Source: Candidatus Omnitrophota bacterium
GTDB lineage: Bacteria > Omnitrophota > Gorgyraeia > DTHP01
Reading direction: 5' to 3'
DNA: 64,000 bases
NCBI GenBank assembly: GCA_023819145.1
Contig: JAMWCW010000004.1
Location: forward strand, 9,935-73,934
Position numbers and translations under genes: made by a program. Shown here piece after piece: positions 1-60,159 of the stretch. The number at the start of each line of letters is the position of its first letter. The first letter of the stretch is position 1. The notes under the pieces were generated by a model. The model had not been told where the DNA came from and searched no databases. It saw only the letters and a list, made by a program, of their open reading frames with translations.

Positions 1-283
1 TTAAATCCACAACATATAAAATAAGGTCGCAGTCGGTTTTTGCCCTTAAGGCAGTAGTATTTAAATATTTTCCCAATTCACTTTTAGGAATATGCAAACC
101 CGGGGTATCTACAAAGACAATTTGACCTCTTTCTTCATTGAGAATGCCTCGGATCTGAAATCGAGTGGTTTGTGGTTTCGAAGAAGTAATGCTTACTTTC
201 TCCTTTAAAATATTATTGAGAAGAGTAGACTTTCCTACATTTGGTCTTCCGATAATTGCTACAAATCCACATTTTTTATCCAT
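1..283 (-). CDS. era: GTPase Era, N-terminal part (gene continues beyond window start)
   Basis: Reverse-strand translation from ATG (complement of 281-283) gives [26 protein letters not shown]...QTTRF...VDTPGLH: G1 P-loop, G2 Thr and G3 DTPG motifs typical of Era; ORF runs off the window edge. Confidence 0.85.
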
Positions 284-366
284 GTTTTAAATATAACAGT
301 TTTGAGATAGATATTCAATATCAATATAAATTATACCAAATACTTATGCTGTTATTATGTTTTTCG

Positions 367-395
367 TTGACAGATATCTCAATTTTTGCTATATT
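367..395 (+). promoter_or_regulatory. Predicted sigma70-type promoter (TTGACA-17 nt-TATATT) upstream of marR-family gene; flanked by palindromes TTAATTAA/ACTTAAGT (405-425), possible operator
   Basis: Exact TTGACA at 367-372, 17-nt spacer, TATATT at 390-395, 45 bp upstream of the ORF starting at 441. Confidence 0.4.
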
Positions 396-440
396 TAGTT
401 ACATTAATATTTAATTAACTTAAGTATAACAATTATTCCT

Positions 441-890
441 ATGTCAATTAACCAATTTAGCAAGAAAATGGTGATTATCTTGCCCAAGGTAATGAGATTA
501 ATGACCAAAAGGCAATCTAATGAATTATTTAAAGGAAAAATTACCTTACCACAGTTTATAGTTATGGAGTTTTTATATAGAGAGGGACCTGCTATGATGT
601 CAAAAATAGCAGAAATTCTATCGGTAAGTGCACCTGCGGCAACAGGGATTGTGGATAAGTTAGTCAGAGATGCATATTTAATACGGGAAAGCGCACCGGA
701 AAGCAGAAGAATCATATTGATAAAGCTTACTAAAAAAGGCAAGAAATTGGTTGAAAGAACAGTTAAACAAAGGCAAATCTTAATCAAGGATATTTTTGGT
801 AAACTTGAAGAAAAAGAACGCCAGCAATATTTATACATCTTGAATAAAATTTATAAGGTTCTTCAGAATAATCACAAAGGCACAGTATGA
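441..890 (+). CDS. MarR family transcriptional regulator
   Basis: 149 aa; winged-helix region ...LPQFIVMEFLYREGPAMMSKIAEILSVSAPAATGIVDKLVRDAYLIRE...RRIILIKLTKKG typical of MarR; first gene of an efflux operon. Confidence 0.8.
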   Translation: MSINQFSKKMVIILPKVMRLMTKRQSNELFKGKITLPQFIVMEFLYREGPAMMSKIAEILSVSAPAATGIVDKLVRDAYLIRESAPESRRIILIKLTKKGKKLVERTVKQRQILIKDIFGKLEEKERQQYLYILNKIYKVLQNNHKGTV

Positions 891-2149
891 GAAAATTTAT
901 TTTATTTATCTATCTGATAGGCATTTCTTTATCCTGGGCAAAAGAACCTATAAAGCTTACCCTTGAGGAAGCAATAACTATTGCCTTGCGGGATAATCGG
1001 GAGATTCTTATTAAAGAGGAAGATTTGAAGAAGGCAAAAGAGAAATTAAGAGAAGCAAGGGCAGGAATTTTCCCCAAAATCAGTTTAGGAAGTTCAATAT
1101 CGGAGACACTCGATTATTACGATAAAAATACTACCAATTTCTCTAACCAGCTATCTCTAAAACAATCTCTTTACACCGGCGGTAAAACTTTAGGTAATAT
1201 TAAAGAGACTAAATATAGAATAGAAATGAATCAGGCTTCACTCAATAAAACTATTTTAGAAACAGTTTATACTGTTAAAAAGGCATTTTTTACTCTCCTC
1301 TTAGCGGGAGAATATGCTAAACTAAATGAATTAATTCTTGCAAATACCAAAAATCATTTTAAGGTCGTTAGCGAACGCTATAATAACGGCCAAGCATCTG
1401 AATCAGAGCTTATTAAATTACAACAGGCGATGGCAAGTGTAGAGCACATTTTTCTTACATCTCTTAATCAAATAGAAGGGGCAAAAATGAACTTGAGAAA
1501 TTTACTTAATTTGGAAAAAAGCATAGATATCGAACCTGAAGGCAAATTCATCTATGAGCCGAAAGAGATAGCTTTTGATGAAGTTTATATTAAAGCACTT
1601 AAAGAAAGACCTGAATTATCGTTCTACGAAGCACAAGAAAAAATAGATAAATTACAAAAAGAAACTGCCAGAGCAGAAATCCTTCCTAGCGTATATGCCT
1701 CATGGGACTATTATATTAATCGTTCTAATGCTCCGCAAGCGATTTCAAAAGATTGGGAAAGTCATCAGACCATTGGGATTGTCTTAACCTGGCCAATATT
1801 TGACGGTTTTGCTACTCAGGCAAAAATAAGTCAGGCAGAAATTGATTTAAAAGAAACTCAACTGCTTAAAGAAAAGACCATTATGGATATAGCCTCAGAA
1901 TTAAAAGATGCTTATTTAGAGTTAAATAACGCTCTTACAAAATTAAAGGCAAAAGATACAGAAATAAAATTCTACGAAGATAATCTACGCATAATTAACG
2001 ATAAGTATAAAATGGGGATTGCAAGCAGTTTGGATTTAGAAGATGCAAAATTGGGATTTGAAATCTCTAATTTTAATCTTAAAGAAGCAATCTATGACTA
2101 TCTACTTGCAAAAGCAAGAATGGAGAGGGCAATAGGGGAGATAAAATGA
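887..2149 (+). CDS. TolC-family outer membrane efflux protein
   Basis: 420 aa; N-terminal signal peptide; two repeats of coiled-coil/beta-barrel outer membrane factor pattern (..LTLEEAITIALRDN.., ..LSLKQSLYTGGK..); overlaps the next gene by 4 bp. Confidence 0.8.
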   Translation: MRKFILFIYLIGISLSWAKEPIKLTLEEAITIALRDNREILIKEEDLKKAKEKLREARAGIFPKISLGSSISETLDYYDKNTTNFSNQLSLKQSLYTGGKTLGNIKETKYRIEMNQASLNKTILETVYTVKKAFFTLLLAGEYAKLNELILANTKNHFKVVSERYNNGQASESELIKLQQAMASVEHIFLTSLNQIEGAKMNLRNLLNLEKSIDIEPEGKFIYEPKEIAFDEVYIKALKERPELSFYEAQEKIDKLQKETARAEILPSVYASWDYYINRSNAPQAISKDWESHQTIGIVLTWPIFDGFATQAKISQAEIDLKETQLLKEKTIMDIASELKDAYLELNNALTKLKAKDTEIKFYEDNLRIINDKYKMGIASSLDLEDAKLGFEISNFNLKEAIYDYLLAKARMERAIGEIK

Positions 2150-3030
2150 GAATCCGAAATGTTGTTCTAGCCTTTTGTGGATTTTTAATGCTCAGTGGTT
2201 GTCAGAAGAAATTAGAAGTAAAGAAAGAGGTTCTTCCAGAAACAATTCCTGTAAGGGTAATTAGGATAAAACCAAGAGACCTATTAGAGACTATAGAGTA
2301 CGTTGGGGATATCAAAGCCAAGGATGAAGTTTTAGTTTATCCCAAAGTAACAGGAAAAGTTATCGAAAAGGTAAAAGAGGACGGTAGTTTTGTAACGAAA
2401 GGAGAAACAATATTATATATTGACCGCGATGAAGTAGGATTTAAGTTCGAAAAGGCACCTGTAGAAAGTCCTTTGAATGGAGTAATCGGAAGGGTTTATG
2501 TAGATTTAGGAGAAAACGTTGGTCCTCAGACTCCGGTTGCTAAAGTCCTAGATTTAGATAAGGTAAAAATTAAATTAGAAATACCCGAGAAGCATCTTCC
2601 CCGCATCTCTTTAGGTCAAAGAGCAAAAATATATGTAGATGCCTATCCCGCCCAAGAATTTAGTGGAGAAATAACTAAAATCAGTCCGGTATTAGATAGT
2701 GATACTCGAACGTTTCCTATTGAAATAACTGTAGCCAATCTCAAACATCTTCTTAAATCTGGTCTCTTTGCTCGTGTAAGTCTAATCATTTCGGAGCATA
2801 AAAATGTTCCGGTTATTCTAAGAGAAGCAATTATCGGTAAAGAACCCGATTTATATGTTTTCACAGTAGAGGAAAATAAAGCGTTTTTAAAGAAAATTAA
2901 ATTAGGAATCCGCCAAGGTCAGTATTATGAGGTCATTGAAGGGTTAAAAGAAGGCGATTTAGTAGTAGTTATGGGACAACAAAGATTGTATGAGGGAGTA
3001 GAAGTAACAGTCGAGGAAAATAGTGATTGA
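2146..3030 (+). CDS. RND efflux membrane fusion protein (periplasmic adaptor subunit), lipoprotein
   Basis: 294 aa; lipobox LMLSGC; biotinyl/lipoyl-like and beta-barrel segments (VGDIKAKDEVLVYPKVTGKV...); sits between the TolC-like and RND genes. Confidence 0.8.
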   Translation: MRIRNVVLAFCGFLMLSGCQKKLEVKKEVLPETIPVRVIRIKPRDLLETIEYVGDIKAKDEVLVYPKVTGKVIEKVKEDGSFVTKGETILYIDRDEVGFKFEKAPVESPLNGVIGRVYVDLGENVGPQTPVAKVLDLDKVKIKLEIPEKHLPRISLGQRAKIYVDAYPAQEFSGEITKISPVLDSDTRTFPIEITVANLKHLLKSGLFARVSLIISEHKNVPVILREAIIGKEPDLYVFTVEENKAFLKKIKLGIRQGQYYEVIEGLKEGDLVVVMGQQRLYEGVEVTVEENSD

Positions 3031-3071
3031 GTTAAAAATTATAATATCAAAAGTCTAGAAAGTCTTTAAAC

Positions 3072-6000
3072 ATGAAATTACCTGAATTTGGAGTTAAAAG
3101 ACCGGTTACAAACTTAATGATTTTTGCAGGAATAATTATTCTGGCAATCTACAGCTTATCACGTTTGGGAGTAGACCAGATGCCGGAGATTGAACCGCCA
3201 GTAATTAGTGTAATTTCTGCTTATCCGGGGGCAAGTCCTGAGGATGTAGAAATAAAAGTAACTGAACCTTTAGAAAATCAACTGGCTACAACCCCAGGAA
3301 TAGAAAAAATCACTTCCATTTCTGCAGAAGGAGTTTCTGTAATTACTCTTAAATTTGCCTGGGGAACTAATCTTGATAACGCTTCAAATGACATTCGCGA
3401 CCGTATTGAATTAGCGAAACGTTCCCTACCGGATATACCAGACGAGATGGAAAACCCTTTTATCTTTAAGTTCAATACTGCAATGATGCCTATTCTGTTT
3501 GTAGGAATTACCGCTCAGCAAAATTATGCTGAACTTTTTGATTTAATCGATAAACAGATTGCTGACCCCATTAGGCAAATTCCGGGTATAGGAACGGTAC
3601 AATTATTTGGAGGTTTGGAAAGACAGATTAATGTCTGGATAGATAGAGGTCGTTTAGAAGGATATGGGTTTTCTATTTTGCATATTTTAGATGCATTAAG
3701 GAAGGAAAACATAACTCAACCCGTAGGAAATTTAAAATCAGGTTTAACCAGTTATCTCGTAAGACTCCCCGGAGAATTTTCTTCTCCCGAGGAGTTAAAC
3801 TCTGTAATTTTAGGAAAAAGGGGAAATAGAACAATATACTTAAGAGATGTGGCAAGAGTGGAAGACAGCTTTAAAGAAATAACCCTTGAGGCAAGAATAA
3901 ATAAGAATCGGGGTATGATGATGATGGTCCAGAAACAAACAGGGACCAACACTGTAGAAGTGGCGAAGAGGGCGAAAAATCTCTTGAGCGAATTAGAAAA
4001 GAAATTGCCTAAGGATATAAAGATAAATACGGTTTTTGACAGTTCTCAGGATATCATAAATTCTCTAAATTCCCTAAAAAGTTCTCTTTTGAGGGGCATA
4101 TTTTTTGTAATTTTGGTAGTCTGGTTTTTTTTAAGACAGTTCAGAACCAGTTTGATTATTGCTTTGACTATTCCCTTCTCCTTACTAATTTCTTTCATCT
4201 ATCTTTTTTTGCAGGGAAGAACTATCAATATCATAAGTCTATCTTCCTTAGCTATTGCTTCTGGGATGGTAGTGGATAACGCCATTGTGGTTGTGGACAA
4301 TATTTGGAGACATATAGAAAGAGGTGAACGTTTGCGTGAGGCAGCAATTTTTGGTACCCAGGAAATGTTTCTGGCAATCATTGCTTCCACCTTTACTACC
4401 ATCGCCGTATTTTTACCTTTCTTTTTTATACGCGGAATAATCGGAATTATGTTTGGGGAATTGGCAATGGTGGTTACTATAACTTTATTTGCCTCGCTGT
4501 TTACTGCTTCTACCTTTAGCCCCATGTTATGTTCAAAATTATTAAAAGAAAAACAAACAACCGGAACACAAAAGAAAGGGTTAAGTAAACTCTACGAATT
4601 CTCAGAGAAAGGCCTCAAATCTTTAGAAAATTTATATTCTCAAATACTTTTATCAAGTCTCAGACATAAAAAATTAATTATTTTTTGTTTCTCTTTCTTA
4701 TTCATTTCAAGCCTTTTTCTTCTGCGCTTTTTAGGTAATGAATTCATCCCTGAACAGGACACAGGAGATGTGCGGGCTACCATTCGTCTTCCACTAGGCA
4801 CACGTTTTGAGGAAACAAGAAAAATTGCTTTAAGGATAGAAGAAATCTTAGAAAAAAATGTCCCCGAAAAAAGAGTTATGTTTGTAAGACCAGGAACAAC
4901 CACGAGTATGGGGAGAGCTTTTAGAGCGTCGGGGGAATCAGGAGAAAATATAATCGTTGCCGGAGCAAAACTCGTTCCCAAAACAGAAAGAACACGCTCG
5001 GTTTTTGAAATTGGACAGGTTTTGAGAAAAGAAATTGGTAAAATCCCCGGCGTGTTAAGAATAGATATTTCTACTGGTAATCCCATGGGAAGAATGATTA
5101 CCGGAATGGGGGGAAAGGCAATTCAGGTAGAAATTGTAGGACACTCTTTTGAAACGACAAATACCTTAGCGGAGAAATTGAAAAATATAATTGAGAAAAT
5201 TCCCGGAGCAGTGGATATCAGTATTTCGCGTGAAATAAGCCAACCTGAATTGAGGATTGCCGTAGATAGAGAAAAAGCCTCTATTTTAGGTTTAAATATG
5301 CAGACGATTGCTTCTTCGTTAAAGGCTTACATTGAAGGTTCTACTGCAACAAAGTATCGCGAAAAGGGTGAGACTTACGATATCTATGTGAGATTGGAAG
5401 AAGCTTCACGCACAAAGATAGAAGACATTGAGAATCTATCTGTTGTTGCTCCTCTAACCGGAAACCTCGTAAAGCTGGCTAATTTTGCAAAGGTTTACGA
5501 AACCACAGGACCTGTAGATATTGAAAGAACCAACCGAGAGAGGGTAGTAAAAGTTGAATGTAACGTCTTTGGAAGACCAGTAGGAAAGGTTAGGGAAGAT
5601 ATCGAACAAAACTTGAAACAGTTGGTTATACCTTCAGATATAAGAATTAACTTTGGAGGAGAAGCTGAGGAGCAGATGAAGGCCTTTAAAGATTTAACAA
5701 TTCTGCTAATCTTAGGCATTATTCTTGTCTATATGATTATGGCGGGACAATTTGAGTCTCTCCTCGATCCCTTTGTAGTAATGTTTAGTGTTCCTTTTAC
5801 TTTCTCGGGGGTGTTCTTAGGGCTTTTTCTTACCAAAACAACCCTTAATGTTATTTCCTTCATGGGTATAATAATGCTTATGGGAATAGTAGTAAATAAT
5901 GCTATAGTTTTAATCAGTTATATAAATATATTGCGCGCCAGGGGACTGGTTATGTATGAAGCAGTAGCGCAAGCAGGAAAAGAAAGATTAAGGCCAGTGT

Positions 6001-6200
6001 TTATGACTACTTTTACTACGCTGGCTGGTCTTTTTCCTATGGCTTTTCTAAAAGGAGAAGGTTCAGAAGTATGGCAACCTCTGGGTATAACCATGATTAG
6101 CGGATTAACTGTTTCCACTTTTATCACCCTTATTTTTGTACCTACACTCTATACAGCCCTAGAAACGAGGGTTAAGCAAAGGAGAGAAAGGCGCTTATGA
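3072..6200 (+). CDS. RND family efflux transporter permease (AcrB/CzcA-like)
   Basis: 1042 aa; 12-TM RND architecture with two large periplasmic loops; conserved segments such as AIASGMVVDNAIVVVDNI and MLMGIVVNNAIVLISY. Confidence 0.9.
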   Translation: MKLPEFGVKRPVTNLMIFAGIIILAIYSLSRLGVDQMPEIEPPVISVISAYPGASPEDVEIKVTEPLENQLATTPGIEKITSISAEGVSVITLKFAWGTNLDNASNDIRDRIELAKRSLPDIPDEMENPFIFKFNTAMMPILFVGITAQQNYAELFDLIDKQIADPIRQIPGIGTVQLFGGLERQINVWIDRGRLEGYGFSILHILDALRKENITQPVGNLKSGLTSYLVRLPGEFSSPEELNSVILGKRGNRTIYLRDVARVEDSFKEITLEARINKNRGMMMMVQKQTGTNTVEVAKRAKNLLSELEKKLPKDIKINTVFDSSQDIINSLNSLKSSLLRGIFFVILVVWFFLRQFRTSLIIALTIPFSLLISFIYLFLQGRTINIISLSSLAIASGMVVDNAIVVVDNIWRHIERGERLREAAIFGTQEMFLAIIASTFTTIAVFLPFFFIRGIIGIMFGELAMVVTITLFASLFTASTFSPMLCSKLLKEKQTTGTQKKGLSKLYEFSEKGLKSLENLYSQILLSSLRHKKLIIFCFSFLFISSLFLLRFLGNEFIPEQDTGDVRATIRLPLGTRFEETRKIALRIEEILEKNVPEKRVMFVRPGTTTSMGRAFRASGESGENIIVAGAKLVPKTERTRSVFEIGQVLRKEIGKIPGVLRIDISTGNPMGRMITGMGGKAIQVEIVGHSFETTNTLAEKLKNIIEKIPGAVDISISREISQPELRIAVDREKASILGLNMQTIASSLKAYIEGSTATKYREKGETYDIYVRLEEASRTKIEDIENLSVVAPLTGNLVKLANFAKVYETTGPVDIERTNRERVVKVECNVFGRPVGKVREDIEQNLKQLVIPSDIRINFGGEAEEQMKAFKDLTILLILGIILVYMIMAGQFESLLDPFVVMFSVPFTFSGVFLGLFLTKTTLNVISFMGIIMLMGIVVNNAIVLISYINILRARGLVMYEAVAQAGKERLRPVFMTTFTTLAGLFPMAFLKGEGSEVWQPLGITMISGLTVSTFITLIFVPTLYTALETRVKQRRERRL

Positions 6201-6487
6201 AAATGGTAATGATTGTCTATAATGAAGCAATAGAGGAAATGGTGATGGAAATTATGGTAAAATGTGGCTTAAAAAATTACACAAAAATTGCCGGGGTATA
6301 TGGAAAGGGAACATCTTCAGGAACGCACTTAGGAAACGATATCTGGCCAGGAAGAAATAATCTTTTATACGTCGCCTGTGAAGAAAAAGAAAAGAATGAA
6401 ATGGTTTGTTGCATTAAAGAATTGAGAAAGAGATTTGGATACGAAGGGGTAAAGGCATTTGTTCTTCCGGTAGAGGAAATAACTTAA
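6197..6487 (+). CDS. PII-like small protein (nitrogen-regulatory PII fold, T-loop-like GVYGKGTSSGTHLGND), translationally coupled to the RND pump
   Basis: 96 aa; ATGA start/stop overlap with the RND gene; predicted beta-alpha-beta pattern and a glycine-rich loop resembling the PII T-loop; PII-like proteins (DUF3240-type) are known to ride in RND metal-efflux operons. Confidence 0.4.
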   Translation: MKMVMIVYNEAIEEMVMEIMVKCGLKNYTKIAGVYGKGTSSGTHLGNDIWPGRNNLLYVACEEKEKNEMVCCIKELRKRFGYEGVKAFVLPVEEIT

Positions 6488-6488
6488 A

Positions 6489-7010
6489 ATGATTCTTATA
6501 AAACTATTTTTTACTTTTCTTAAAATTGGACTATTTACTATTGGAAGTGGCTATTCAATGCTTGTGCTTGCGCAGAAATATATAGTAGACACCTACCAAT
6601 GGTTGACGATGGAGGAATTTACAGACTTAGTGGCTATTGCCGAATTAACCCCCGGCCCAATTATCATAAATTTAGCTACCTTTGTAGGAACAAGGGTTGC
6701 CGGGTTGAAAGGAGCCATTCTTTCCACCGTCGGACTTATTATCATCCCTTTTGGATTTTTATTTATTATTGCCAGCAAGTATTTACAGCTTAAAAACTTT
6801 CCTTTTATGCAAAATTTTCTTAATGTCATTAGGCCCATTGCCATAGCGCTTATTACCATTGCCATCATAAATCTTTTTAAAACATCAATTACCAACCTCA
6901 AAACTTTCTTAATTGCAATCATAGCGATTGTCCTCTTGCAATTTTTTAAAGTTAATCCTATATTTATAGTAATTGGAGGATTAATTATTTCCCTTATTTT
7001 TAAAGTATGA
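6489..7010 (+). CDS. chrA: Chromate transporter family protein, short single-domain type (ChrA-like)
   Basis: 173 aa, about 5 TM; N-terminal FLKIGLFTIGSGYSMLVL...WLTMEEFTDLVAIAELTPGPIIINLATFVG matches the CHR family signature. Confidence 0.7.
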   Translation: MILIKLFFTFLKIGLFTIGSGYSMLVLAQKYIVDTYQWLTMEEFTDLVAIAELTPGPIIINLATFVGTRVAGLKGAILSTVGLIIIPFGFLFIIASKYLQLKNFPFMQNFLNVIRPIAIALITIAIINLFKTSITNLKTFLIAIIAIVLLQFFKVNPIFIVIGGLIISLIFKV

Positions 7011-7927
7011 GGATACTAACACGCCTACTCTTGAAATTATTTGTAAAAGATTACGGAGATTTTCATAATCCGGGAGTAAGGGCAAAATATGGCTATCTGG
7101 AATCAGTAACGAGTATCATCGTTAATCTAATTCTTTCGCTGGCCAAATTCTTACTTGGTATCCTTTCTAACAGTATCGCCCTTATCGCCGATTCTTTCCA
7201 TACCTTTTCCGATGTGATCACCTCGGTTATTGTATGGGTAGGATTCAAAGCTTCGCAACGCCCTGCAGATAGTGAACACCCTTTTGGTCATGGGAGAATA
7301 GAATTTATTTCTACCTTAATCATCGGAGTTTTACTGTTATTTGCAGGATTTAATTTCTTAAAAGACTCTTTCCTGCGTATATTAAATCCCCAAGCAGTAA
7401 AAGCAGGCCTTGGAACCATTATTTTTCTTGTTATTTCTGCGTATCTAAAAGAAGAATTGGCAGTATTTGCTACAGAATTAGGGGAGAAGATAAAAGGTGA
7501 TTCCTTACTTGCTGATGCCTGGCATCATCGCACTGATGCCATCGCTTCTTTATTGATAATTTTATCGATCATCGCCTCAAAATTTGGTTACTTCATTGTT
7601 GACGCTTTTTTAGGGTTAATAATCTCTTTAGTAATAATTTGGCTGGGAATAAAATTTGTTCATAAATCTTCAAATAAATTAATAGGTCATGCTCCCAATA
7701 AAGAAATTTTATATAAAATTCAAAGTGAGGCATATAAAATTAAAGGGGTAAAGAACATCCATGACATAGAGATTCATGAATATGGAGAAGAATTAAGAAT
7801 ATCCTTACATATCAAAGTAAAATCCCGACTCCGTGTAGACTCTGCCCACCAAATAGCAGAAGCAGTAGAGCAAAGGTTGAAAGAGAACTTGGGAATTTCT
7901 GCAGTAGTCCACGTCGACCCCCTATAA
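7007..7927 (+). CDS. Cation diffusion facilitator (CDF) family transporter
   Basis: 306 aa; TM domain with HTFSDVITS...SEHPFGHGRIE and C-terminal cytoplasmic dimerisation domain; ATGA overlap with the upstream gene. Confidence 0.85.
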   Translation: MRILTRLLLKLFVKDYGDFHNPGVRAKYGYLESVTSIIVNLILSLAKFLLGILSNSIALIADSFHTFSDVITSVIVWVGFKASQRPADSEHPFGHGRIEFISTLIIGVLLLFAGFNFLKDSFLRILNPQAVKAGLGTIIFLVISAYLKEELAVFATELGEKIKGDSLLADAWHHRTDAIASLLIILSIIASKFGYFIVDAFLGLIISLVIIWLGIKFVHKSSNKLIGHAPNKEILYKIQSEAYKIKGVKNIHDIEIHEYGEELRISLHIKVKSRLRVDSAHQIAEAVEQRLKENLGISAVVHVDPL

Positions 7928-8018
7928 TCGTAAGTTAGAGTAGACATTCTTCCTTAAATTTTTTGATTTCTTTTTTTATCTTATAATGCTATAATTAATG
8001 TTCAAAAAAAGGACAGTT

Positions 8019-9257
8019 ATGGAAAATATATTCCGTTTCTTCAAATGGTTATACCCCGGCATGCGGATTAAGCGCTGGATATTTCTCTGTGCCTTGGGTA
8101 TATTCTGCGTGAGTATTGGTTCGGCAAAGGTTGTCTCCCAGAGAGACCCGTTGTTTATCCTTAGCGGTTCTTTACTGCTTTTATTGGGAATAATTTTATT
8201 AACGTTAGGTATAAAATATATGGTTAAATCATTTATCAATATAATATTGCCTGAAAAAGATAAAGAATTGGTAGATATTGTATATCAGAAAAGACACTTA
8301 CAAAAAGGCCCGCGTATCGCAGCAATTGGAGGAGGAACAGGACTGTCTGTGCTTCTGCATGGAATAAAAGAATACACTTCCAACATTACAGCGATTGTTA
8401 CAGTAGCAGATGACGGTGGTAGCTCGGGAAGAATACGGGAACAGTTTGACATGTTGCCGCCAGGAGATATTAGAAACTGCTTAGTAGCCCTTGCGGATGC
8501 CGAACCTTTAATGCGTGAGTTGTTTCAATTTCGTTTTGATAATGATTCCGAATTAAAGGGGCACAATTTTGGCAATCTTTTTATAACCGCACTCTCTAAG
8601 GTTACTGGAGATTTTGAAAAAGCCATCAAAGAGTCAAGTAAAGTATTGGCTATAAGAGGGCAGGTAGTTCCCTCTACCCTAAATAAGGTAAAACTGATTG
8701 CCGAACATACAGATGGAACAAAAACAATAGGGGAATCCAAGATTCCCAACCGCGGAATGCCCATCAAAAAACTTTACCTTAATCCTCTGGAATGCAACCC
8801 TACTGATGAAGCACTAGAGGCAATTTATGAAACAGAGGCAATAATATTGGGACCGGGAAGTTTATATACATCAGTTTTACCTAATCTACTTGTCCGGGGT
8901 ATGACAGAAGCAATTTTAAGAACAAGTGCAATAAAAATATATATCTGCAATGTAATGACTCAGCCCGGAGAAACTGATAATTTTACCGCCTCTGACCATG
9001 TTAAGACAATTATTGAACACACTCATCCCCGTATTATTGATTATTGCATCGTAAACACTGCCCCCATTCCCTATTCACTACGGGAGAAATACAAAGAAGA
9101 AAATGCTTATCCTGTAACAAACGATTCTGCAAAAATCAGAGAATGGGGATATAAAGTTATAGAAGAGGATGTAATTTCTACAACCAACTTTGTTCGGCAT
9201 AGTCCCGAAAAACTTGCACGTTGTATTATGGACTTGCTAAACTCCCTTAGAAAATGA
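8019..9257 (+). CDS. yvcK: YvcK / gluconeogenesis factor (CofD-like, UPF0052) with about 90 aa N-terminal 2-TM extension
   Basis: Core starts PRIAAIGGGTGLSVLLHGIK...VTVADDGGSSGRIREQF.MLPPGDIRNC, diagnostic of YvcK/CofD; the ORF track starts at 7998, but ATG 8019 has a better RBS (AAAGGA); N-terminal hydrophobic helices precede the core. Confidence 0.85.
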   Translation: MENIFRFFKWLYPGMRIKRWIFLCALGIFCVSIGSAKVVSQRDPLFILSGSLLLLLGIILLTLGIKYMVKSFINIILPEKDKELVDIVYQKRHLQKGPRIAAIGGGTGLSVLLHGIKEYTSNITAIVTVADDGGSSGRIREQFDMLPPGDIRNCLVALADAEPLMRELFQFRFDNDSELKGHNFGNLFITALSKVTGDFEKAIKESSKVLAIRGQVVPSTLNKVKLIAEHTDGTKTIGESKIPNRGMPIKKLYLNPLECNPTDEALEAIYETEAIILGPGSLYTSVLPNLLVRGMTEAILRTSAIKIYICNVMTQPGETDNFTASDHVKTIIEHTHPRIIDYCIVNTAPIPYSLREKYKEENAYPVTNDSAKIREWGYKVIEEDVISTTNFVRHSPEKLARCIMDLLNSLRK

Positions 9258-11260
9258 ATTCAGTAAATATGGAAAAGATGAAACTTTTGATAGCAATTCA
9301 TTCGCATCAACCTGTGGGGAATTTTGACCACGTTTTTGAAACCGCATTTAATAAGGCCTATCTTCCTTTTCTGGATGTTTTAGAAAAACATCCTCAGATT
9401 AAAATAGCTCTGCATTACTCCGGAAGTCTCTTGGATTGGTTAGAGCATAAAAAACCAGAGTTTATTCAACGTATCAAGAGATTAACCGAGAAAAAACAGA
9501 TAGAGATCCTCTCTGCGGGATATTATGAACCAATCCTCGTTCTTTTGAACGAAGAGGATAGAATTGGGCAGATAAAGCTTTTAAATGAAAAAATATTCCA
9601 TCTCTGGTCAGTTAAGCCACAGGGTGCCTGGCTTACGGAGAGAGTTTGGGAACCTGATTTGCCCAAGACTTTCAAAGAAGCAGATATAGCTTATACAATC
9701 GTGGATGATACACATTTTGAAAAAACAGGAAAAATGCGCGAAGAGCTCTGGGGGTATTACCTTACCGAATACGATAACAAGATTACCAAAATATTCCCCG
9801 GTTCGAAGTTTTTACGCTACGCATTACCTTTTAAGCTTCCTGATGAGACGATAGGTTATTTAAAACAATCTTTTAACATAGGAAGAAAGGCTATAACCTT
9901 TGCTGATGATGGAGAAAAATTTGGTCTCTGGCCAGGAACCTACAAATGGGTATATGAAGAGCACTGGTTAGAAAGGTTCTTTCAAATTATTGAAAATAAC
10001 GGCGAATGGTTGGAAACAGTAACTTTTAGTGAATATTTAGCAAAATTTCCTCCTACGGGAAGAATCTATTTACCCTGTGCAAGTTATGACGAGATGCTCG
10101 ATTGGTCAAACGGATATTTTAGGAATTTTTTGGCAAAATATCCTGAAGCAAACCATATGCACAAAAGGATGCTGGAAGTAAGCAGGAAAGTACAAAATGC
10201 AAAATGCAAAATGCAAAGTTTAGAATTTGAAGAGGCCAGACGTTATCTCTACATGTCCCAGAACAATGACAGTTATTGGCACGGTGTATTTGGGGGATTG
10301 TATCTAAACCATTTAAGATGCAGTGCCTACTCTAATCTTATCCGAGCAGAAAATATCGTGGAGAAATCCTGCTACAATAAAAATGATTGGTTAGATTACA
10401 AGACAGATGATTTCGATTGCGATGGGGCAAATGAGCTTATGCTGTCAAACAAACTACTCAAAATCTATATAGACTTAGAAGAAAAAGCTGGCATCTACGA
10501 GATTGACCATAAAGATAAAGAAATTAACATTGTAAATACTATCGCCCGAAGAAAGGAGAAATATCACGATAAAATAAGAGAAAAAATTCTTGCAAACACC
10601 GAATGTTCTACCCATCGCGAGAACACAGCCAGTATTCATGACATAGAAAAACACATACCGCGAGAATGGGAAGAGTTCCTGGTCTATGACCGTTATCGTA
10701 AAGGATGTCTCCTGGAACACTTTCTTAACGCTGATGTTACCAAAGAAAATTTTTTAAAGAATAATTACGAAGAAAAGGAATCTCTTCTTAATAGATATAT
10801 ATTGGATTCTGTAGACCAAAAGAGTAGTTTAATCAGAGTAAATTTAAAAAGGGAATTTTTTTGTGATGGGCTACCTTTTGAAATACAAAAAACTTTAATA
10901 CTGGAATCAAATATGAAGAGGATATCCTATGCTTATTCAATCTTAAATAAATCAAAAACATTTTGGAATGGAAAATTTGCAGTGGAATTCAATTTTTCCC
11001 TATGGGATAACCTTCTCTCATCTTTAGGAGAAAGAGACAATATAAATAATTTATTAATTAAAGATACTTGGTTTGGTATAGAGATAGAAATGAATTTTAA
11101 CAAACAGGGCAAGCTCTGGCACTTTCCGGTAGAAACAATCTATGAAACAGAAAGTGGTTTTGAGAAAACCTACCAAGAATTGGGGATTGTTCTTGTTTGG
11201 GAACTAAACTCCATCCCAGAGAAAGAATTTAGAATCTCAGGTGATTTTGAACTTAAATAG
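9254..11260 (+). CDS. Glycoside hydrolase family 57 protein (alpha-amylase / 4-alpha-glucanotransferase-like)
   Basis: 668 aa; N-terminal LLIAIHSHQPVGNFDHVFE...ALHYSGSLLDWLE and ...WLTERVWEP..., hallmark of the GH57 catalytic domain. Confidence 0.85.
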   Translation: MNSVNMEKMKLLIAIHSHQPVGNFDHVFETAFNKAYLPFLDVLEKHPQIKIALHYSGSLLDWLEHKKPEFIQRIKRLTEKKQIEILSAGYYEPILVLLNEEDRIGQIKLLNEKIFHLWSVKPQGAWLTERVWEPDLPKTFKEADIAYTIVDDTHFEKTGKMREELWGYYLTEYDNKITKIFPGSKFLRYALPFKLPDETIGYLKQSFNIGRKAITFADDGEKFGLWPGTYKWVYEEHWLERFFQIIENNGEWLETVTFSEYLAKFPPTGRIYLPCASYDEMLDWSNGYFRNFLAKYPEANHMHKRMLEVSRKVQNAKCKMQSLEFEEARRYLYMSQNNDSYWHGVFGGLYLNHLRCSAYSNLIRAENIVEKSCYNKNDWLDYKTDDFDCDGANELMLSNKLLKIYIDLEEKAGIYEIDHKDKEINIVNTIARRKEKYHDKIREKILANTECSTHRENTASIHDIEKHIPREWEEFLVYDRYRKGCLLEHFLNADVTKENFLKNNYEEKESLLNRYILDSVDQKSSLIRVNLKREFFCDGLPFEIQKTLILESNMKRISYAYSILNKSKTFWNGKFAVEFNFSLWDNLLSSLGERDNINNLLIKDTWFGIEIEMNFNKQGKLWHFPVETIYETESGFEKTYQELGIVLVWELNSIPEKEFRISGDFELK

Positions 11261-37900: not shown

Positions 37901-39673
37901 ATGCTCTCAAAAAATATTTTACTAAGTTTATCAAAACCAGGAAGGTATATCAATAACGAATTAAATACTTATCACCGCACCTCTACAAAAGCGACTTTGA
38001 AGTTCTGTCTGGCCTATCCGGATATATATGAAGTAGGCATGAGTAATCTGGGATTTAGAATAATTTACGATATTCTTAATCAAGAACCAGAAGTTATCTG
38101 TGAACGCGTTTTTCTACCCTGGGTAGACTTGGAAGATTTTTTAAGGAAAAATAATATCACACTCTACTCTCTAGAATCAGAAATACCTTTATGCGATTTT
38201 GACATCTTAGGAATATCCATACAAACAGAATTAAATTATACAGGGGTTTTAAACTTGCTCAATTTAGGTAAAATACCTGTTTTTGCCACGGAAAGAAAAG
38301 AAGGGTTTCCTTTGGTTATAGCTGGGGGTAGTGCATGTTTTAATCCTGAACCATTGGCTGAATTCATAGATATTTTTGTGGTTGGGGAGGGGGAGGAGAT
38401 AATTTTAGAGATAATAAATATTTGCAAAAATAGAATAAAAAATCTAAAACAAGAAAAAAAAGAAATTCTTATAGAACTTGCTCGTTTAGAAGGAATTTAT
38501 GTCCCTTCTCTTTATAATGTTGAATATTTCCCTCAAGGAACAATAAAAGAATTTTATCCTCTTATTCCAAACATCCCACTAAAAATAAAAAGGAGAGTCA
38601 TCCACGATTTAAATAATGCTTACTATCCTAAAAGAACAATCCTTCCCTACATCGAAATTATCCATGATCGCATCGGTATAGAAATTATGCGGGGGTGTCC
38701 CCATCGCTGTAGATTCTGTCAGGCAAGAAACATATATTATCCGAAACGCGAAAGAGATCCTGCGAAAATAAAGGAGTTGGCTTACCAAAATTTTCGCTCA
38801 TCAGGTTATGAGGAAATAGCTTTATTATCTCTTTCCAGCCTTGACCACCGTGATATAGACGATATTTTTTCTACCTTAAATAGTATCTTCAGAAGTCAGG
38901 GCGTAGGCATATCTCTTTCTTCATTAAGAATTAATGCTGTGATGAAAAAAATAATAAAAGAATACCAAGGAACTTACCGTAGCGGTCTTACTTTCGCTCC
39001 TGAAGTAGGAAGTGAAAGACTACGCAGAATTATAAATAAAAACATTGATATAAATCTATTTTATGAAATTGTAGAAAACATCTTTAAGCTTGGATGGAGA
39101 GGCTTGAAACTTTATTTTATGATAGGACTACCCGAAGAGAAAGAAAAAGATCTTCAGGAAATTATAGAAATGGTGGATAAAATATTAGTGATCAAAAAAA
39201 GGAATCAAAATAATTCTGGGAAAATACGTCTAAGCTTCAATATTTTTATACCTAAACCTCACAGTACTTTTCAATGGCTTCCTATGGAAGAAGAGCATTT
39301 ACTGAAAGAGAAAATAAAATATTTTAAAGAAAAAATAAGGAATAAATTAATAAAATATAATATAAGCAGTTGGGAGGAAAGTTGGTTAGAAGCTTTAATT
39401 TCAAGAGGAGATAGAAAATTGAGTAAGGTTATATTCAAGGCTTGGGAAAGAGGGGCAAAATTTGATGGTTGGAGAGAACAATTTAATTTTCCTATCTGGC
39501 AAAAGGCATTGGAAGAAACAAAAATAGACCCAAATTTTTATATCCACCGTAAAAGAACATTGGAAGAAATATTACCGTGGGATTTTATAGAAACGGGGGT
39601 TAAAAAAGAGGAGTTGGTTGCGGATTATAAAAATTTCGAAAAGTCTTTAGAGATTGACAGGATAACAATTTAG
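37901..39673 (+). CDS. B12-binding-domain radical SAM protein (TIGR03960-like uncharacterised family)
   Basis: 590 aa; N-terminal ...KPGRYINNELN...FCLAYPDIYEVGMSNLGFRIIYD; CPHRCRFCQA radical SAM cluster motif. Confidence 0.7.
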   Translation: MLSKNILLSLSKPGRYINNELNTYHRTSTKATLKFCLAYPDIYEVGMSNLGFRIIYDILNQEPEVICERVFLPWVDLEDFLRKNNITLYSLESEIPLCDFDILGISIQTELNYTGVLNLLNLGKIPVFATERKEGFPLVIAGGSACFNPEPLAEFIDIFVVGEGEEIILEIINICKNRIKNLKQEKKEILIELARLEGIYVPSLYNVEYFPQGTIKEFYPLIPNIPLKIKRRVIHDLNNAYYPKRTILPYIEIIHDRIGIEIMRGCPHRCRFCQARNIYYPKRERDPAKIKELAYQNFRSSGYEEIALLSLSSLDHRDIDDIFSTLNSIFRSQGVGISLSSLRINAVMKKIIKEYQGTYRSGLTFAPEVGSERLRRIINKNIDINLFYEIVENIFKLGWRGLKLYFMIGLPEEKEKDLQEIIEMVDKILVIKKRNQNNSGKIRLSFNIFIPKPHSTFQWLPMEEEHLLKEKIKYFKEKIRNKLIKYNISSWEESWLEALISRGDRKLSKVIFKAWERGAKFDGWREQFNFPIWQKALEETKIDPNFYIHRKRTLEEILPWDFIETGVKKEELVADYKNFEKSLEIDRITI

Positions 39674-39714
39674 AGTTAAAATCTTTACAAACTTTATAAT
39701 AAAAAGGAGGAGAA

Positions 39715-40782
39715 ATGCTCGATAAAAGACTGGAAGAACTGTTAAGGATGACGGTAGAAGAAAAGGCTTCAGATTTACATTTAGGAACTGGTATGCCTCC
39801 GTATCTTCGTATAGACGAAAAACTTATTGCGGTAGGAAAAGAACCGCTTAATAGAGAAACAGTCAAAGAAATGGCCTATAGTTTAATAGACGAGAGACAA
39901 AGAGCCCAGTTTGAAGCAGAAAAGGAACTCGATATGTCTTTTGGAATCGAAGGCTGGAGCCGTTTCAGAGTCAATCTTTTCTATCAACGGGGAGATATCG
40001 GAGTTGCTATCCGTGCATTACCATATCATATTATGAGCATAGAAGAATGTGGATTACCGCCGGATATTATAAAAGATTTAATTACTAAGCCAAAAGGGTT
40101 GGTGTTGGTTACTGGAGCCACGGGGAGTGGAAAGTCTACGACGTTGGCGGCGATGATTGAAGAAATTAATCGAGAAAGAACATGCCACATTGTAACTATA
40201 GAAGATCCTATAGAATATGTCTATAAAAATAAAAAATCCATCATTGATCAACGGGAAGTAGGTTCCGATACATATTCCTTCTCCAGTGCTTTAAAACATG
40301 TTCTTCGTCAAGATCCCAATGTCATTCTTATTGGTGAAATGCGTGATCTGGAAACGATAGAAGCAGCTCTAAATATAGCAGAAACAGGTCATCTTGTATT
40401 AGCTACTCTTCATACCTCAGACGCAGTACAGACAATAAACCGCGTAATAGATGTTTTTCCGCAGTATCAACAGAATCAGGTAAGAATTCAATTATCCTTT
40501 GTCCTACTAGCAGTTTTATCACAACAATTAATCCCCCGCTTAGGAGGAAAAGGAAGGATCCTTGCTATAGAATTGTTAGTTGCTAACCATGCGGTACGTA
40601 GCCTCATCAGAGATGCTAAAGTACACCAGATATATTCTATAATCCAAACTAGCCAGAAAGAAGGCATGAAAACTATGAACCAGTCTCTTTATGAGCTCTA
40701 CATCAACAAAATGATAACCATGGACGATGCCCTTTCAAGAACCTTAGATCCCGATGATTTAAAGAGGCTATTAGAAAAATAA
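39715..40782 (+). CDS. pilT: Type IV pilus retraction ATPase PilT
   Basis: 355 aa; Walker A GLVLVTGATGSGKSTTLAAMI, Asp box, Walker B, His box; AIRxLIRE-type C-terminal motif (AVRSLIRDAK). Confidence 0.9.
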   Translation: MLDKRLEELLRMTVEEKASDLHLGTGMPPYLRIDEKLIAVGKEPLNRETVKEMAYSLIDERQRAQFEAEKELDMSFGIEGWSRFRVNLFYQRGDIGVAIRALPYHIMSIEECGLPPDIIKDLITKPKGLVLVTGATGSGKSTTLAAMIEEINRERTCHIVTIEDPIEYVYKNKKSIIDQREVGSDTYSFSSALKHVLRQDPNVILIGEMRDLETIEAALNIAETGHLVLATLHTSDAVQTINRVIDVFPQYQQNQVRIQLSFVLLAVLSQQLIPRLGGKGRILAIELLVANHAVRSLIRDAKVHQIYSIIQTSQKEGMKTMNQSLYELYINKMITMDDALSRTLDPDDLKRLLEK

Positions 40783-41255
40783 TGTTCACACTCAAGAAAA
40801 ATTTTACAGCATTTATTCTGCTAACATTTTACATTGCTCCTATTTATATCCTGGCAGAGGAAAATCCAGAATTAAATTTTACCAGTGAACTAAGTAAAAA
40901 TAGGATAAAAATGGGAGAAAACGTTATCCTTACTGTAACTATCTCAGGAGCGTATAAAGTTCCGCCGGAAATTAAACTACCCAATCTCTCAGATTTCACT
41001 ATCATCTCATCTAATCAATATTCCTCTTATAATATCAAAGAAAAGAAATACGAAGCAAAGACCAAATATGAGATTCATCTTTTACCAAAAAAACCAGGAA
41101 CTTTCTCTATCGGTCCCATAGAATTACACTACGCCCGTCAGGTATATAAAACGCAGATTCTTACGCTGGAAGTTTTACCATCTAAAGAATATGAAGAATC
41201 TCCTTTACCTAAAAAAGAAATTCCTTGGAAGGATAAAAAAGGCATCATTATTTAA
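40782..41255 (+). CDS. BatD-like N-terminal domain protein (secreted/membrane)
   Basis: 157 aa; signal/anchor then a beta-rich domain (VILTVTISGAYKVPPEIKLP...FSIGPIELHY) resembling the BatD N-terminal domain. Confidence 0.35.
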   Translation: MFTLKKNFTAFILLTFYIAPIYILAEENPELNFTSELSKNRIKMGENVILTVTISGAYKVPPEIKLPNLSDFTIISSNQYSSYNIKEKKYEAKTKYEIHLLPKKPGTFSIGPIELHYARQVYKTQILTLEVLPSKEYEESPLPKKEIPWKDKKGIII

Positions 41256-41266
41256 ATAGGAAACCC

Positions 41267-42193
41267 ATGCTTAAAGAATTAAATAAAATAGTGGACAAGA
41301 TAGTTTATCAATGCATGGGTTACCAAAGAGGAGAAAGGATTCTGATTATTACTGATGATAAATTGGTAAAAATTGCTAAAATTTTTTACGAAAGGATTAA
41401 AAACCTCGGCATAGAAATTTCGCTTATGTGTATACCCCCGCGTTCGGTTCACGGTGAAGAACCTCCTCCAGAAGTAACTTTCGCATTGAAAGCTACCAAT
41501 GTAGCATTATTAATCACTTCTAGATCACTATCCCACACCTACGCAAGACAGTCTGCTTCAAAAAAATATGGCGTAAGAATAGCTTCGATGCCAGGAATAA
41601 ATCTCGATATTCTTAAACGCAGTTTGAATCTAGATTACAAAGAACTTAGTAATAAAACCAATAGATTAGCAGTGGTTATAAACAGAGGTAAGAATATCAG
41701 GGTTAAGACAAAAAAGGGGACAGATGTAAATTTTTCTATAAAGGGGAGAAAAACTTTAGAAGATAATGGTTTATATATACAAAAGGGTGCATTTGGCAAC
41801 TTACCTGCTGGAGAAGTGTGCATTGCCCCTTTAGAAGGAACTACGCAAGGAATACTTTTAATAGATGCGAGTTTTGCTATGTTAGGAAGATTGAGAAAGC
41901 CCATAGAATTAGAAGCTAAAAATGGAATTGTTGTGAAGATTAATGATACGAGATTGAAAAGATTATTATCGAGAATGGGAAAATCTGCTTTAAATATTGC
42001 AGAATTTGGCATTGGTTTAAATCCTAAGGCAATAATCTCTGGGAATATCCTTGAGGATGAAAAAGCTACAGGTACTGCCCATATTGCTTTAGGCGACAAT
42101 CTTTCTTTTGGAGGTAGGACGAAAGCAAAATGTCATTTAGACGGAGTATTTCTAAACCCAGAGGTCTGGGTAGATGAAGAAAAAATAATATAA
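41267..42193 (+). CDS. M29-family aminopeptidase (thermophilic metalloprotease-like), short form
   Basis: 308 aa; NLPAGEVCIAP and ILEDEKATGTAHIALGDN match the M29 PsGEvf.aP / DEKigGtvHiAlG signatures. Confidence 0.55.
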   Translation: MLKELNKIVDKIVYQCMGYQRGERILIITDDKLVKIAKIFYERIKNLGIEISLMCIPPRSVHGEEPPPEVTFALKATNVALLITSRSLSHTYARQSASKKYGVRIASMPGINLDILKRSLNLDYKELSNKTNRLAVVINRGKNIRVKTKKGTDVNFSIKGRKTLEDNGLYIQKGAFGNLPAGEVCIAPLEGTTQGILLIDASFAMLGRLRKPIELEAKNGIVVKINDTRLKRLLSRMGKSALNIAEFGIGLNPKAIISGNILEDEKATGTAHIALGDNLSFGGRTKAKCHLDGVFLNPEVWVDEEKII

Positions 42194-42240
42194 TAATCTT
42201 TCTTCTTTTTTATTCTTCTCCATAAAAAATTAAACTTTCC

Positions 42241-42302
42241 CACGGCGTCACCCGTTATTTTTTATTAGGGCACAATGCCACGGGCATTTTTAAGACGCCG
42301 TG
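42241..42302 (+). repeat. Structured repeat copy A: 9-bp perfect inverted arms CACGGCGTC/GACGCCGTG enclosing a ~40-nt conserved core
   Basis: Core ACCCGTTATTTTTTATTAGGGCACAATGCCACGGGCA, shared with copy B about 115 bp downstream. Confidence 0.6.
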
Positions 42303-42353
42303 CATTTTCTATTTTATATAACACTTTCTTTGCAATTTTTATTACAATATTTT

Positions 42354-42426
42354 CACCGGGTGCCACCCGTTATTTTTATTAGGCACAATGCCACGGGCAA
42401 TATTTAAGGCACCCAGGTATTTTTTT
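42354..42426 (+). repeat. Structured repeat copy B: inverted arms GGGTGCC/GGCACCC around the same core, followed by a T7 run (possible intrinsic terminator)
   Basis: Core ACCCGTTATTTTTATTAGGCACAATGCCACGGGCA; arms differ in sequence from copy A but keep perfect pairing; TATTTTTTT at 42419-42426. Confidence 0.6.
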
Positions 42427-42728
42427 AATTATATTTTAAGCAAATTCCATACCAAAATAAAGAAAATCAAATAAACAAATGTTTAATATATATAAGTTAT
42501 TGATAATAAACATACTTATAGAATAAGAACTTTCTTAAGCTAAATTCTTCTCTTATACCTGAGTTAGAAAAAGTTGGTTACTTTTTTTACTATTATCAAC
42601 AAGCGAAAAAAATAATTTACATATACCTTCCGTAACTATATGATAATTAGATAAATAACCTAAAACAGAGAATAAGGAAATTGTAAATAAAAGTTTCCCT
42701 ATATGTAATTTTTATTTCCTTTTTTCCC

Positions 42729-42757
42729 TTGACAAATATTCTCTTTATTAATATTAT
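42729..42757 (+). promoter_or_regulatory. Predicted sigma70-type promoter (TTGACA-17 nt-TATTAT) for the PG-binding lipoprotein gene
   Basis: TTGACA at 42729-42734, 17-nt spacer, TATTAT at 42752-42757; RBS AAAGGAG at 42786-42792 before ATG 42800. Confidence 0.45.
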
Positions 42758-42799
42758 TATATCTAAAATCTATTCAATTAAAAAAGAAAGGAGCGAGAT

Positions 42800-43198
42800 A
42801 TGAAGAAAAAGGGGATAGTCGTTTGTTTTTTGTTCGCATTTATTTTTATTTCAGGATGCGCGAAGAAGAAAGAAGAAATTAGAATCTTTGAGCCTGAGGA
42901 ATTTGAATCCGAAACCAAAGAAATCGAAACTATAAAAATAGTTCCTCCCGAAATAAGCACCTCACCATCTCCTACTCCTGAGGAGGAGAAAATATTACAT
43001 AACCAAAAGATACAGAGGGCCTTAAAAATCAGCGGTTTCTACACTGGAGAAATTGACGGGAAAATTGGTCCTAAGACACGTGAAGCTATTCGTAAGTTCC
43101 AAGCAGCGAGAGGACTAAAGGTAGATGGTATAGTTGGACCTAAAACATGGCAAGAATTAGAGAAGGTTCTTGTCTCTCAACCCTCATCTTCTCAGTAA
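42800..43198 (+). CDS. Lipoprotein with a C-terminal peptidoglycan-binding domain (PG_binding_1)
   Basis: 132 aa; lipobox FISGC; Pro/Glu-rich linker; LKISGFYTGEIDGKIGPKTREAIRKFQAARGLKVDGIVGPKTW, the classic PG-binding repeat. Confidence 0.8.
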   Translation: MKKKGIVVCFLFAFIFISGCAKKKEEIRIFEPEEFESETKEIETIKIVPPEISTSPSPTPEEEKILHNQKIQRALKISGFYTGEIDGKIGPKTREAIRKFQAARGLKVDGIVGPKTWQELEKVLVSQPSSSQ

Positions 43199-60088: not shown

Positions 60089-60159
60089 GCGGGTGTAATT
60101 CAATGGCAGAATGACAGCTTCCCAAGCTGTATATGGCGGTTCAATTCCGCTCACCCGCT
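60089..60159 (+). tRNA. tRNA-Gly (anticodon CCC)
   Basis: Cloverleaf: acceptor GCGGGTG/CACCCGC, D-arm, anticodon stem ACAGC/GCTGT with loop TTCCCAA (CCC), T-arm GGCGG-TTCAATT-CCGCT, discriminator T; no encoded CCA. Confidence 0.8.

Follow-up and report, generated by a model that had tools for sequence, protein, structure and literature searches.

Sigma-54-dependent small RNAs of bacteria include Qrr, GlmY and Pxr. The Omnitrophota, a phylum of widespread, mostly uncultured and very small bacteria, had no regulatory RNA described in the literature that we found. Searches of the literature on Omnitrophota with sigma-54, RpoN, sigma factor or small RNA returned nothing relevant, and the one sigma-54 match concerned Elusimicrobiota. 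The closest described systems come from Pseudomonas. NrsZ is reportedly built of repeated similar stem-loop modules. It is an RpoN/NtrC-dependent, intergenic, processed small RNA of ~226 nt, and CrcZ/CrcY are RpoN/CbrB-dependent RNAs, in which several A-rich motifs titrate Hfq (PMC8395346).

Here we analysed two tandem repeats in a stretch of DNA of 64 kb (referred to as the window), whose M29 peptidase matches, at 100% identity, an NCBI protein assigned to Candidatus Omnitrophota. With a probability of roughly 65%, we read the two copies as tandem modules of a small RNA gene that stands alone on the minus strand and depends on sigma-54. The RNA family is new, but its kind is known. The features of the locus are listed below, in positions of the window.

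41267-42193, plus strand: M29 aminopeptidase gene (Pfam PF02073), the last gene of the convergent cluster.
42223-42228, minus strand: U6 tract, 10 nt after module A; candidate 3' end of the RNA.
42238-42305, minus strand (predicted): copy A, or module A, the second to be transcribed; covariance model 73.6 bits, E 2e-16; supported also by its fold.
42331-42348, minus strand: spacer hairpin UUGUAAU-AAAA-AUUGCAA, weak and AU-rich, between the modules; taken from the minimum free energy fold of the whole predicted transcript.
42353-42419, minus strand (predicted): copy B, or module B, the first to be transcribed; covariance model 82.5 bits, E 1e-18; supported also by its fold and by pair counts.
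42420-42428, minus strand: predicted short A-rich 5' leader, with the predicted transcription start at ~42428, 12 nt after the GC of the promoter, the usual sigma-54 spacing from -12 to +1.
42454-42439, minus strand: sigma-54-type promoter TGGTATGGAATTTGCT, with GG at -24 and GC at -12, 10 nt apart, pointing into the modules.
42493-42518, no strand assigned: inverted repeat TAAGT-N16-ACTTA, 39-64 nt upstream of the promoter; tentative site for an activator (enhancer-binding protein).
42800-43198, plus strand: PG_binding_1 lipoprotein gene, with its own promoter TTGACA-17-TATTAT at 42729-42757.

The initial annotation of the window had claimed two tandem copies of ~65 nt with perfect arms of differing sequence around a conserved core, and it had named the M29 gene upstream and the promoter of the PG-binding lipoprotein downstream as neighbours. 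Arms, core and T7 run all read in the sequence as it stated, and both neighbours were correct. Each copy comprises ~67 nt; the cores are near-identical, and the outer stems are different yet pair perfectly. The arms of copy A, CACGGCGTC (42241-42249) and GACGCCGTG (42294-42302), form 9 perfect pairs, and those of copy B, GGGTGCC (42358-42364) and GGCACCC (42408-42414), form 7, which are lengthened across a one-base bulge by ACC (42355-42357) and GGT (42416-42418). The core common to both copies runs from ACCCGT through a T-rich strand, GGCACAATGCC and ACGGGCA to an AT-rich strand, and the two versions differ by only two single-base indels, copy A having a T and a G that copy B lacks. On the plus strand, copy B is followed by the T7 run (42420-42426).

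These two repeats are far beyond chance. When the 16-nt core GGCACAATGCCACGGG was searched with up to 3 mismatches, only 2 sites were found on both strands of the 64 kb, with 0.08 expected, and for the 35-nt core of copy B the expected number of matches is zero. An unfiltered search of the window with the covariance model returned the two copies at the scores given above and nothing else over 10.3 bits. The folds of copies A and B were 3.5-4.1 SD better than those of shuffled sequences on either strand. No extended complement to the core was found elsewhere in the window. The modules matched no family when the whole window was compared with Rfam 15 at gathering thresholds; the sole match at that threshold was a tRNA gene at 60089-60159 on the plus strand (66.9 bits). 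A search of 42150-42800 on both strands with E values up to 10 likewise gave no match centred on a module, and all hits in this region were far under threshold, e.g. MicF with 25.9 vs 79 bits.

On the minus strand, each module folds into one long irregular hairpin with three helices, P1, P2 and P3. P1 is the GC-rich outer stem, composed of P1a (6-7 bp, mostly GGCGCC/GGCGCC) and, past a bulge of 1-2 nt, P1b (3-5 bp). It is followed by the junction J1/2 of 9-11 nt, UUAAAAAUUG, which starts with an invariant UUAAA. P2 is a stem of 5-6 bp, CCCGU/ACGGG, closed by an invariant G·U, and P3, the invariant capping hairpin GGCA-UUG-UGCC, is stacked directly on it. J3/2, an A-rich strand of 9-14 nt (42-73% A), returns to P2. 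The helices of the two modules lie at the following plus-strand coordinates.

Module B: P1 at 42355-42364/42408-42418 (bulge at 42415), P2 at 42366-42370/42393-42397, P3 at 42382-42392.
Module A: P1 at 42241-42249/42294-42302 (no bulge), P2 at 42251-42255/42280-42284, P3 at 42269-42279.

Covariation was assessed in a model-derived alignment of 10 modules from 8 species, from which L055, a locus introduced below, was left out. In the three-helix fold, 96.8% of the cells over the 10 modules were standard pairs, and changes on both sides occurred in 6 pairs. None of 500 shuffles matched the observed pairing, the count of compensatory pairs or the covariation score, and pairing fell to 40-54% when the partners were slid by 1-3 columns. 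The sequence of P1 varies, and its pairing is kept through compensatory change, from GGCGCC to GGUGCC/GGCACC in copy B and from GGCGCC to GGCGUC/GACGCC in copy A. In P2, L042 has CCUGC/GCAGG where the others have CCCGU/ACGGG, which amounts to two compensatory pairs. The module of L055, the 11th module, from a ninth species and outside the training set, scored 74 bits in the covariance model. P3 never varies and thus offers no covariation evidence; its support is conservation and energy. As judged from 10-11 sequences of one clade, the module appears to be a structured RNA with compensatory pairing, and the covarying stems around a conserved core that the initial annotation had proposed are borne out both between the two copies and across species.

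Two further candidates were rejected. For a pseudoknot between the junctions, pairing was no better than in shuffled sequences (P at least 0.18 in every module). A small peptide of 10 codons in module A (AUG CCC GUG…) was discarded because it has no ribosome-binding site, its changes are compensatory RNA changes, and the junction lengths differ by non-multiples of three.

In order to follow the module beyond the window, we compared loci or contigs from other genomes or metagenomes (numbered L001-L055). The first came from searching one genome of each species for the core pattern, which led to 4 other Omnitrophota MAGs, and further loci by following the contigs of M29 homologues of at least 60% identity. 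In total, 11 intact modules were found in 9 species-level loci, that is, in the window and 8 further ones. The window and L046 (identical to L005) carry two modules each; one each is found in L001, L003, L041 (=L002), L042 (=L043), L051 (=L052), L054 and L055. Partial modules are present in L053, at a contig end, and in L044/L045, beside an IS256-family transposase gene. All copies lie just past the end of a dnaE-mreBCD-pbp2-rodA-radical SAM-pilT-like-(batD)-(M29)-(lgt) cluster. Across species, the module keeps a mean nucleotide identity of ~80%, as against 67% in the adjacent M29 gene and 51% in the neighbouring intergenic DNA, which at this level is essentially unalignable; the difference is in keeping with selection on the module. 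Distant M29 homologues with 55-60% identity (L047-L050) have a different synteny and no module. By these comparisons of sequence, a conserved module with a predicted RNA fold is present at the same spot in at least nine Omnitrophota species.

The gene cluster is itself long, conserved and co-directional. In the window (37901-42193), and also in L041, L042 and L046 (positions 1-10920), it contains the genes for dnaE, mreB, mreC, mreD, PBP2, rodA, a radical-SAM protein (N-terminal domain PF19864), a pilT-like ATPase, a BatD-domain protein and the M29/NicX-like peptidase. The radical-SAM, pilT-like, BatD and M29 genes form an unusual appendix to a cell-shape operon. In L044 (7070-7480) and L045 (6230-6375), which represent one species in two MAGs, module A is cut after ACGGCGCCACCCG and is followed by unrelated sequence and the IS256-family gene (PF00872, Transposase_mut). 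Since the cut module adjoins this gene, an insertion sequence appears to have landed inside it.

Some matches were set aside. Genome-scan hits in Cellvibrio, Kofleriaceae and Leptospiraceae (3 of 7) were chance matches without P1. A metagenome scan with CACCCGT-N8-18-GGCANNNTGCCACGGG gave 33 loci, all of them GC-rich, coding-looking and without the outer stem; the pattern was too strict, as real JGI copies carry CACCCGC or CACCTGC. In these hits (L008-L040), which come from unrelated metagenomes and are in many cases near-identical, GGCA-NNN-TGCCACGGG follows CACCCGT within GC-rich coding-looking sequences. Our guess is that this string encodes a conserved Cys-His-Gly protein motif; for the RNA, the hits are false positives.

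The side of the element that is downstream on the plus strand carries TAAGCAAA-N5-ATRCCA in every locus. Its reverse complement, TGGYAT-N5-TTGC, is the -24/-12 consensus of sigma-54, with GG and GC exactly 10 nt apart. This motif was found in 9/9 species, where 20-36 nt separate its end from P1a of the promoter-proximal module (15-35 nt from the module itself), and its positions GG, A5, T6 and TTGC are invariant in all nine. For assignment to the sigma-54 class, GG and GC had to be exactly 10 nt apart within TGGCAC-N5-TTGCW, as is the case at 42454-42439 on the minus strand. In 200 kb of Omnitrophota DNA, searched on both strands, the pattern [TC]GG[CT]A[CT]-N5-TTGC had 9 matches, as compared with a mean of 1.7 in mononucleotide shuffles. 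Eight of the nine matches are at module loci, and in the 64-kb window the pattern is unique on either strand. The ninth match, L048 6303-6317 on the plus strand, sits in a distant species' M29 gene and is probably due to chance.

In the window only, a sigma-70-like sequence, TTGGTA-16-TATAAT (42428-42455, minus strand, 10/12 matches), overlaps the sigma-54 motif. It could provide basal, activator-independent transcription of the predicted RNA in the window. A sigma-70 promoter was rejected as the driver of the family, because good hexamers are present in the window only and the -10 is unconserved elsewhere, whereas GG-N10-GC is invariant.

From the predicted start, the transcript would comprise ~205 nt, and this RNA folds 4.8 SD better than shuffled sequences. 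The predicted leaders of the other species have 5-25 nt and are rich in purines, and in most relatives the predicted RNA has a single module and roughly 80-110 nt. The spacer between the modules is partly conserved in L046; its hairpin contains a U·G pair on the minus strand that corresponds to a C·A mismatch on the plus strand. The U6 tract pairs with an A-rich stretch in the transcript fold and thereby extends the stem of module A.

Upstream activator sequences of sigma-54 promoters are usually inverted repeats located 70-150 nt upstream. Of the 7-mers upstream of the promoter, TAACTTA/TAAGTTA recurs in the most loci (7/8); it lies 22-45 nt from TGG in five of them, and its position varies. 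In view of the AT-rich background, the inverted repeat listed above is a weak and tentative candidate for an activator site. In the window, TATCAATAACTTA fits the consensus of IHF sites; visual comparison showed no conservation of it elsewhere among the loci, and an IHF site was discarded. Searches of ~200 kb of these genomes for an RpoN box or a GAFTGA motif found none, and neither did those for Hfq and CsrA motifs, in an amount of sequence too small to be informative.

Among the alternatives, the one that survives best places the element on the plus strand, as a conserved part of the 3' UTR of the mre…M29(-lgt) operon and its intrinsic terminator. It could be a tandem terminator with a stabilising or protein-binding loop structure, or a 3'-UTR-derived small RNA, and a plus-strand 3' element or terminator is also what the initial annotation had assumed. 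We consider this reading unlikely. It agrees with the location of the element, always just beyond the end of the gene cluster, and with the plus-strand folds, which are as significant as those of the minus strand. Moreover, every module has a U- or pyrimidine-rich tail on the plus strand (T7 after copy B, TTTTCTATTTT after copy A), so that the stems are equally compatible with a terminator function on that strand. However, the pairing within P2 speaks for the minus strand. Its closing pair (28-54) is U-A in 7/10 aligned modules, U·G in 2/10 (L051 and L054) and C-G in 1/10, and L055, outside the alignment, also has U·G, which brings the number of species to three. On the plus strand this U·G becomes a C·A mismatch, and the invariant G·U adjoining it becomes A·C. 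The gene order argues in the same direction: at four loci (L046, L044/45, L051/52 and L053) the gene that comes after the end of the operon and before the element has minus-strand orientation, so that there is no plus-strand operon to run into the element, and L003, L054 and L055 already have a separate, canonical terminator hairpin between M29 and the module. Finally, a plus-strand element leaves the invariant GG-N10-GC motif unexplained. The promoter and the wobble pairs thus point to the minus strand, contrary to the initial assumption.

The separate hairpin, GCCAGCA…TGCTGGC with T-runs on both sides (L003 4330-4358, L054 ~2965-2995, L055 908-937), looks like an ordinary bidirectional terminator common to the operon and the small RNA. 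As for the module, its loop had been called too big for a simple terminator, and indeed it is a 46-nt structure; a terminator consensus scan does not call the modules, although they have the U-rich tail. In L041, L042 and L051, P1 is directly followed on the minus strand by U7, U6 and U7, respectively, and module A in the window has no U-tract immediately after P1. Given the evidence for the minus strand, the T7 run most likely corresponds to the A-rich 5' leader of the minus-strand transcript; it may help to stop plus-strand transcription too.

A second alternative keeps the minus strand and takes the element for a cis-acting 5' leader, a riboswitch or an attenuator, of a small secreted-protein gene, with the window holding what is left of it once the gene had been lost. 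Riboswitches with tandem aptamers are known, and in L046, L044/45, L053 and L051/52 a gene for a signal-peptide protein of 126-186 aa lies directly downstream in the same orientation; in L046, module A also has no minus-strand U-tract after it. Nevertheless, we regard such a leader as very unlikely. In the window, L001, L041, L042, L003, L054 and L055, the element is followed only by the 3' end of the convergent gene, and U6-U7 runs suggest termination in L041, L042 and L051. Where the downstream gene is present, it has its own near-consensus sigma-70 promoter, and no Rfam riboswitch matched on either strand with E values up to 10.

The small signal-peptide protein, which is encoded right after the module on the same strand in some loci (L046 11723-12140, L044 6620-7075, L051 1871-2560, L053 3393-3820) and is absent in the window, has no Pfam hit. 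Its gene has its own near-perfect promoter, TTGACA-17-TATATT or TATAAT, which falls between module and start codon, and hardly any 5' UTR.

The last alternative, a DNA-level element in the form of a palindromic operator pair, a REP/MITE mobile repeat or a recombination or transposon-end hairpin, can draw on arms that are inverted repeats, on the invariant sequence of P3 and on the IS256-family transposase gene that abuts the partial module in L044/L045, but it is hardly credible, because the P1 and P2 arms vary yet stay complementary, which is the opposite of half-site recognition, the promoter precedes the element, whose syntenic location is fixed, the other 8 species have no transposase or integrase there, and beyond the two copies in the 64 kb there was no copy outside the syntenic site in 137 kb of related loci and no match in plasmid collections, phage collections or viral contigs. 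Hence, neither the dispersed REP/MITE-like unit nor the protein operator pair that the initial annotation had offered as options was retained.

For the small RNA gene, which we prefer, we propose the following course of events. A putative sigma-54 activator would switch on the promoter at 42454-42439, and transcription would start near 42428. The RNA would then pass through module B, the short spacer and module A, to end near the U-tract at 42228-42223. Each transcript would show the invariant P3 and the A-rich unpaired strands once or twice to a trans-acting partner. As the conserved parts are structured and repeated, an RNA-binding protein, titrated or recruited, is a likelier partner than an mRNA with a linear seed. 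In a secondary role, P1 and the flanking A/U runs would terminate the small RNA itself; in the window, L041 and L042, transcription of the convergent operon, too, probably ends at the GC stem with its A/U runs. In agreement with a stand-alone gene, 6/9 species lack an ORF downstream on the minus strand; the distance to the next plus-strand gene, which has its own promoter, is 380-750 nt.

We further speculate that the module is a new, Omnitrophota-specific sensing or decoy RNA domain, in which P3 on P2 and the A-rich strands form a defined pocket, or a platform, to which a small ligand or a global RNA-binding protein would bind. This is rather unlikely; if true, it would couple sigma-54 signalling to post-transcriptional control in an ultra-small, largely uncultured phylum. 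Irrespective of this, the locus is a testable regulatory unit that combines a recognisable sigma-54 promoter with a compact RNA backed by covariation, and it provides a handle for finding the sigma-54 activator and its signal. It also holds a lesson for annotation: a palindrome that follows an operon and resembles a terminator may turn out to be a gene when read from the opposite strand.

The resemblance to bidirectional terminators is real, since the module has a GC-rich stem flanked by an A-run and, at the opposite end, by a T-run and lies between convergent units, and L041, L042 and L051 have U/T runs after the stem on both strands. However, ordinary terminators have loops of 3-8 nt and no sequence conservation across species, whereas here a 46-nt structure is conserved between species whose neighbouring genes are ~67% identical. 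To NrsZ, CrcZ, Qrr, GlmY and Pxr we detected no homology in sequence or structure, and these RNAs are analogues in function only. Like CrcZ, the modules carry A-rich unpaired strands (42-73% A), once or twice per transcript. In contrast to CrcZ, an RNA of 407 nt with linear A-rich motifs, the A-rich strands here are internal loops of a conserved hairpin, and the most conserved part is the hairpin GGCA-UUG-UGCC. NrsZ differs in its phylum, shares no sequence or structure with the modules, which have no Rfam hit, and base-pairs with rhlA mRNA. No general principle is changed by our findings, as sigma-54-dependent small RNAs with repeated modules were already known in Proteobacteria, and it is NrsZ that the locus recalls in its stand-alone design of one or two modules behind a -24/-12 promoter.
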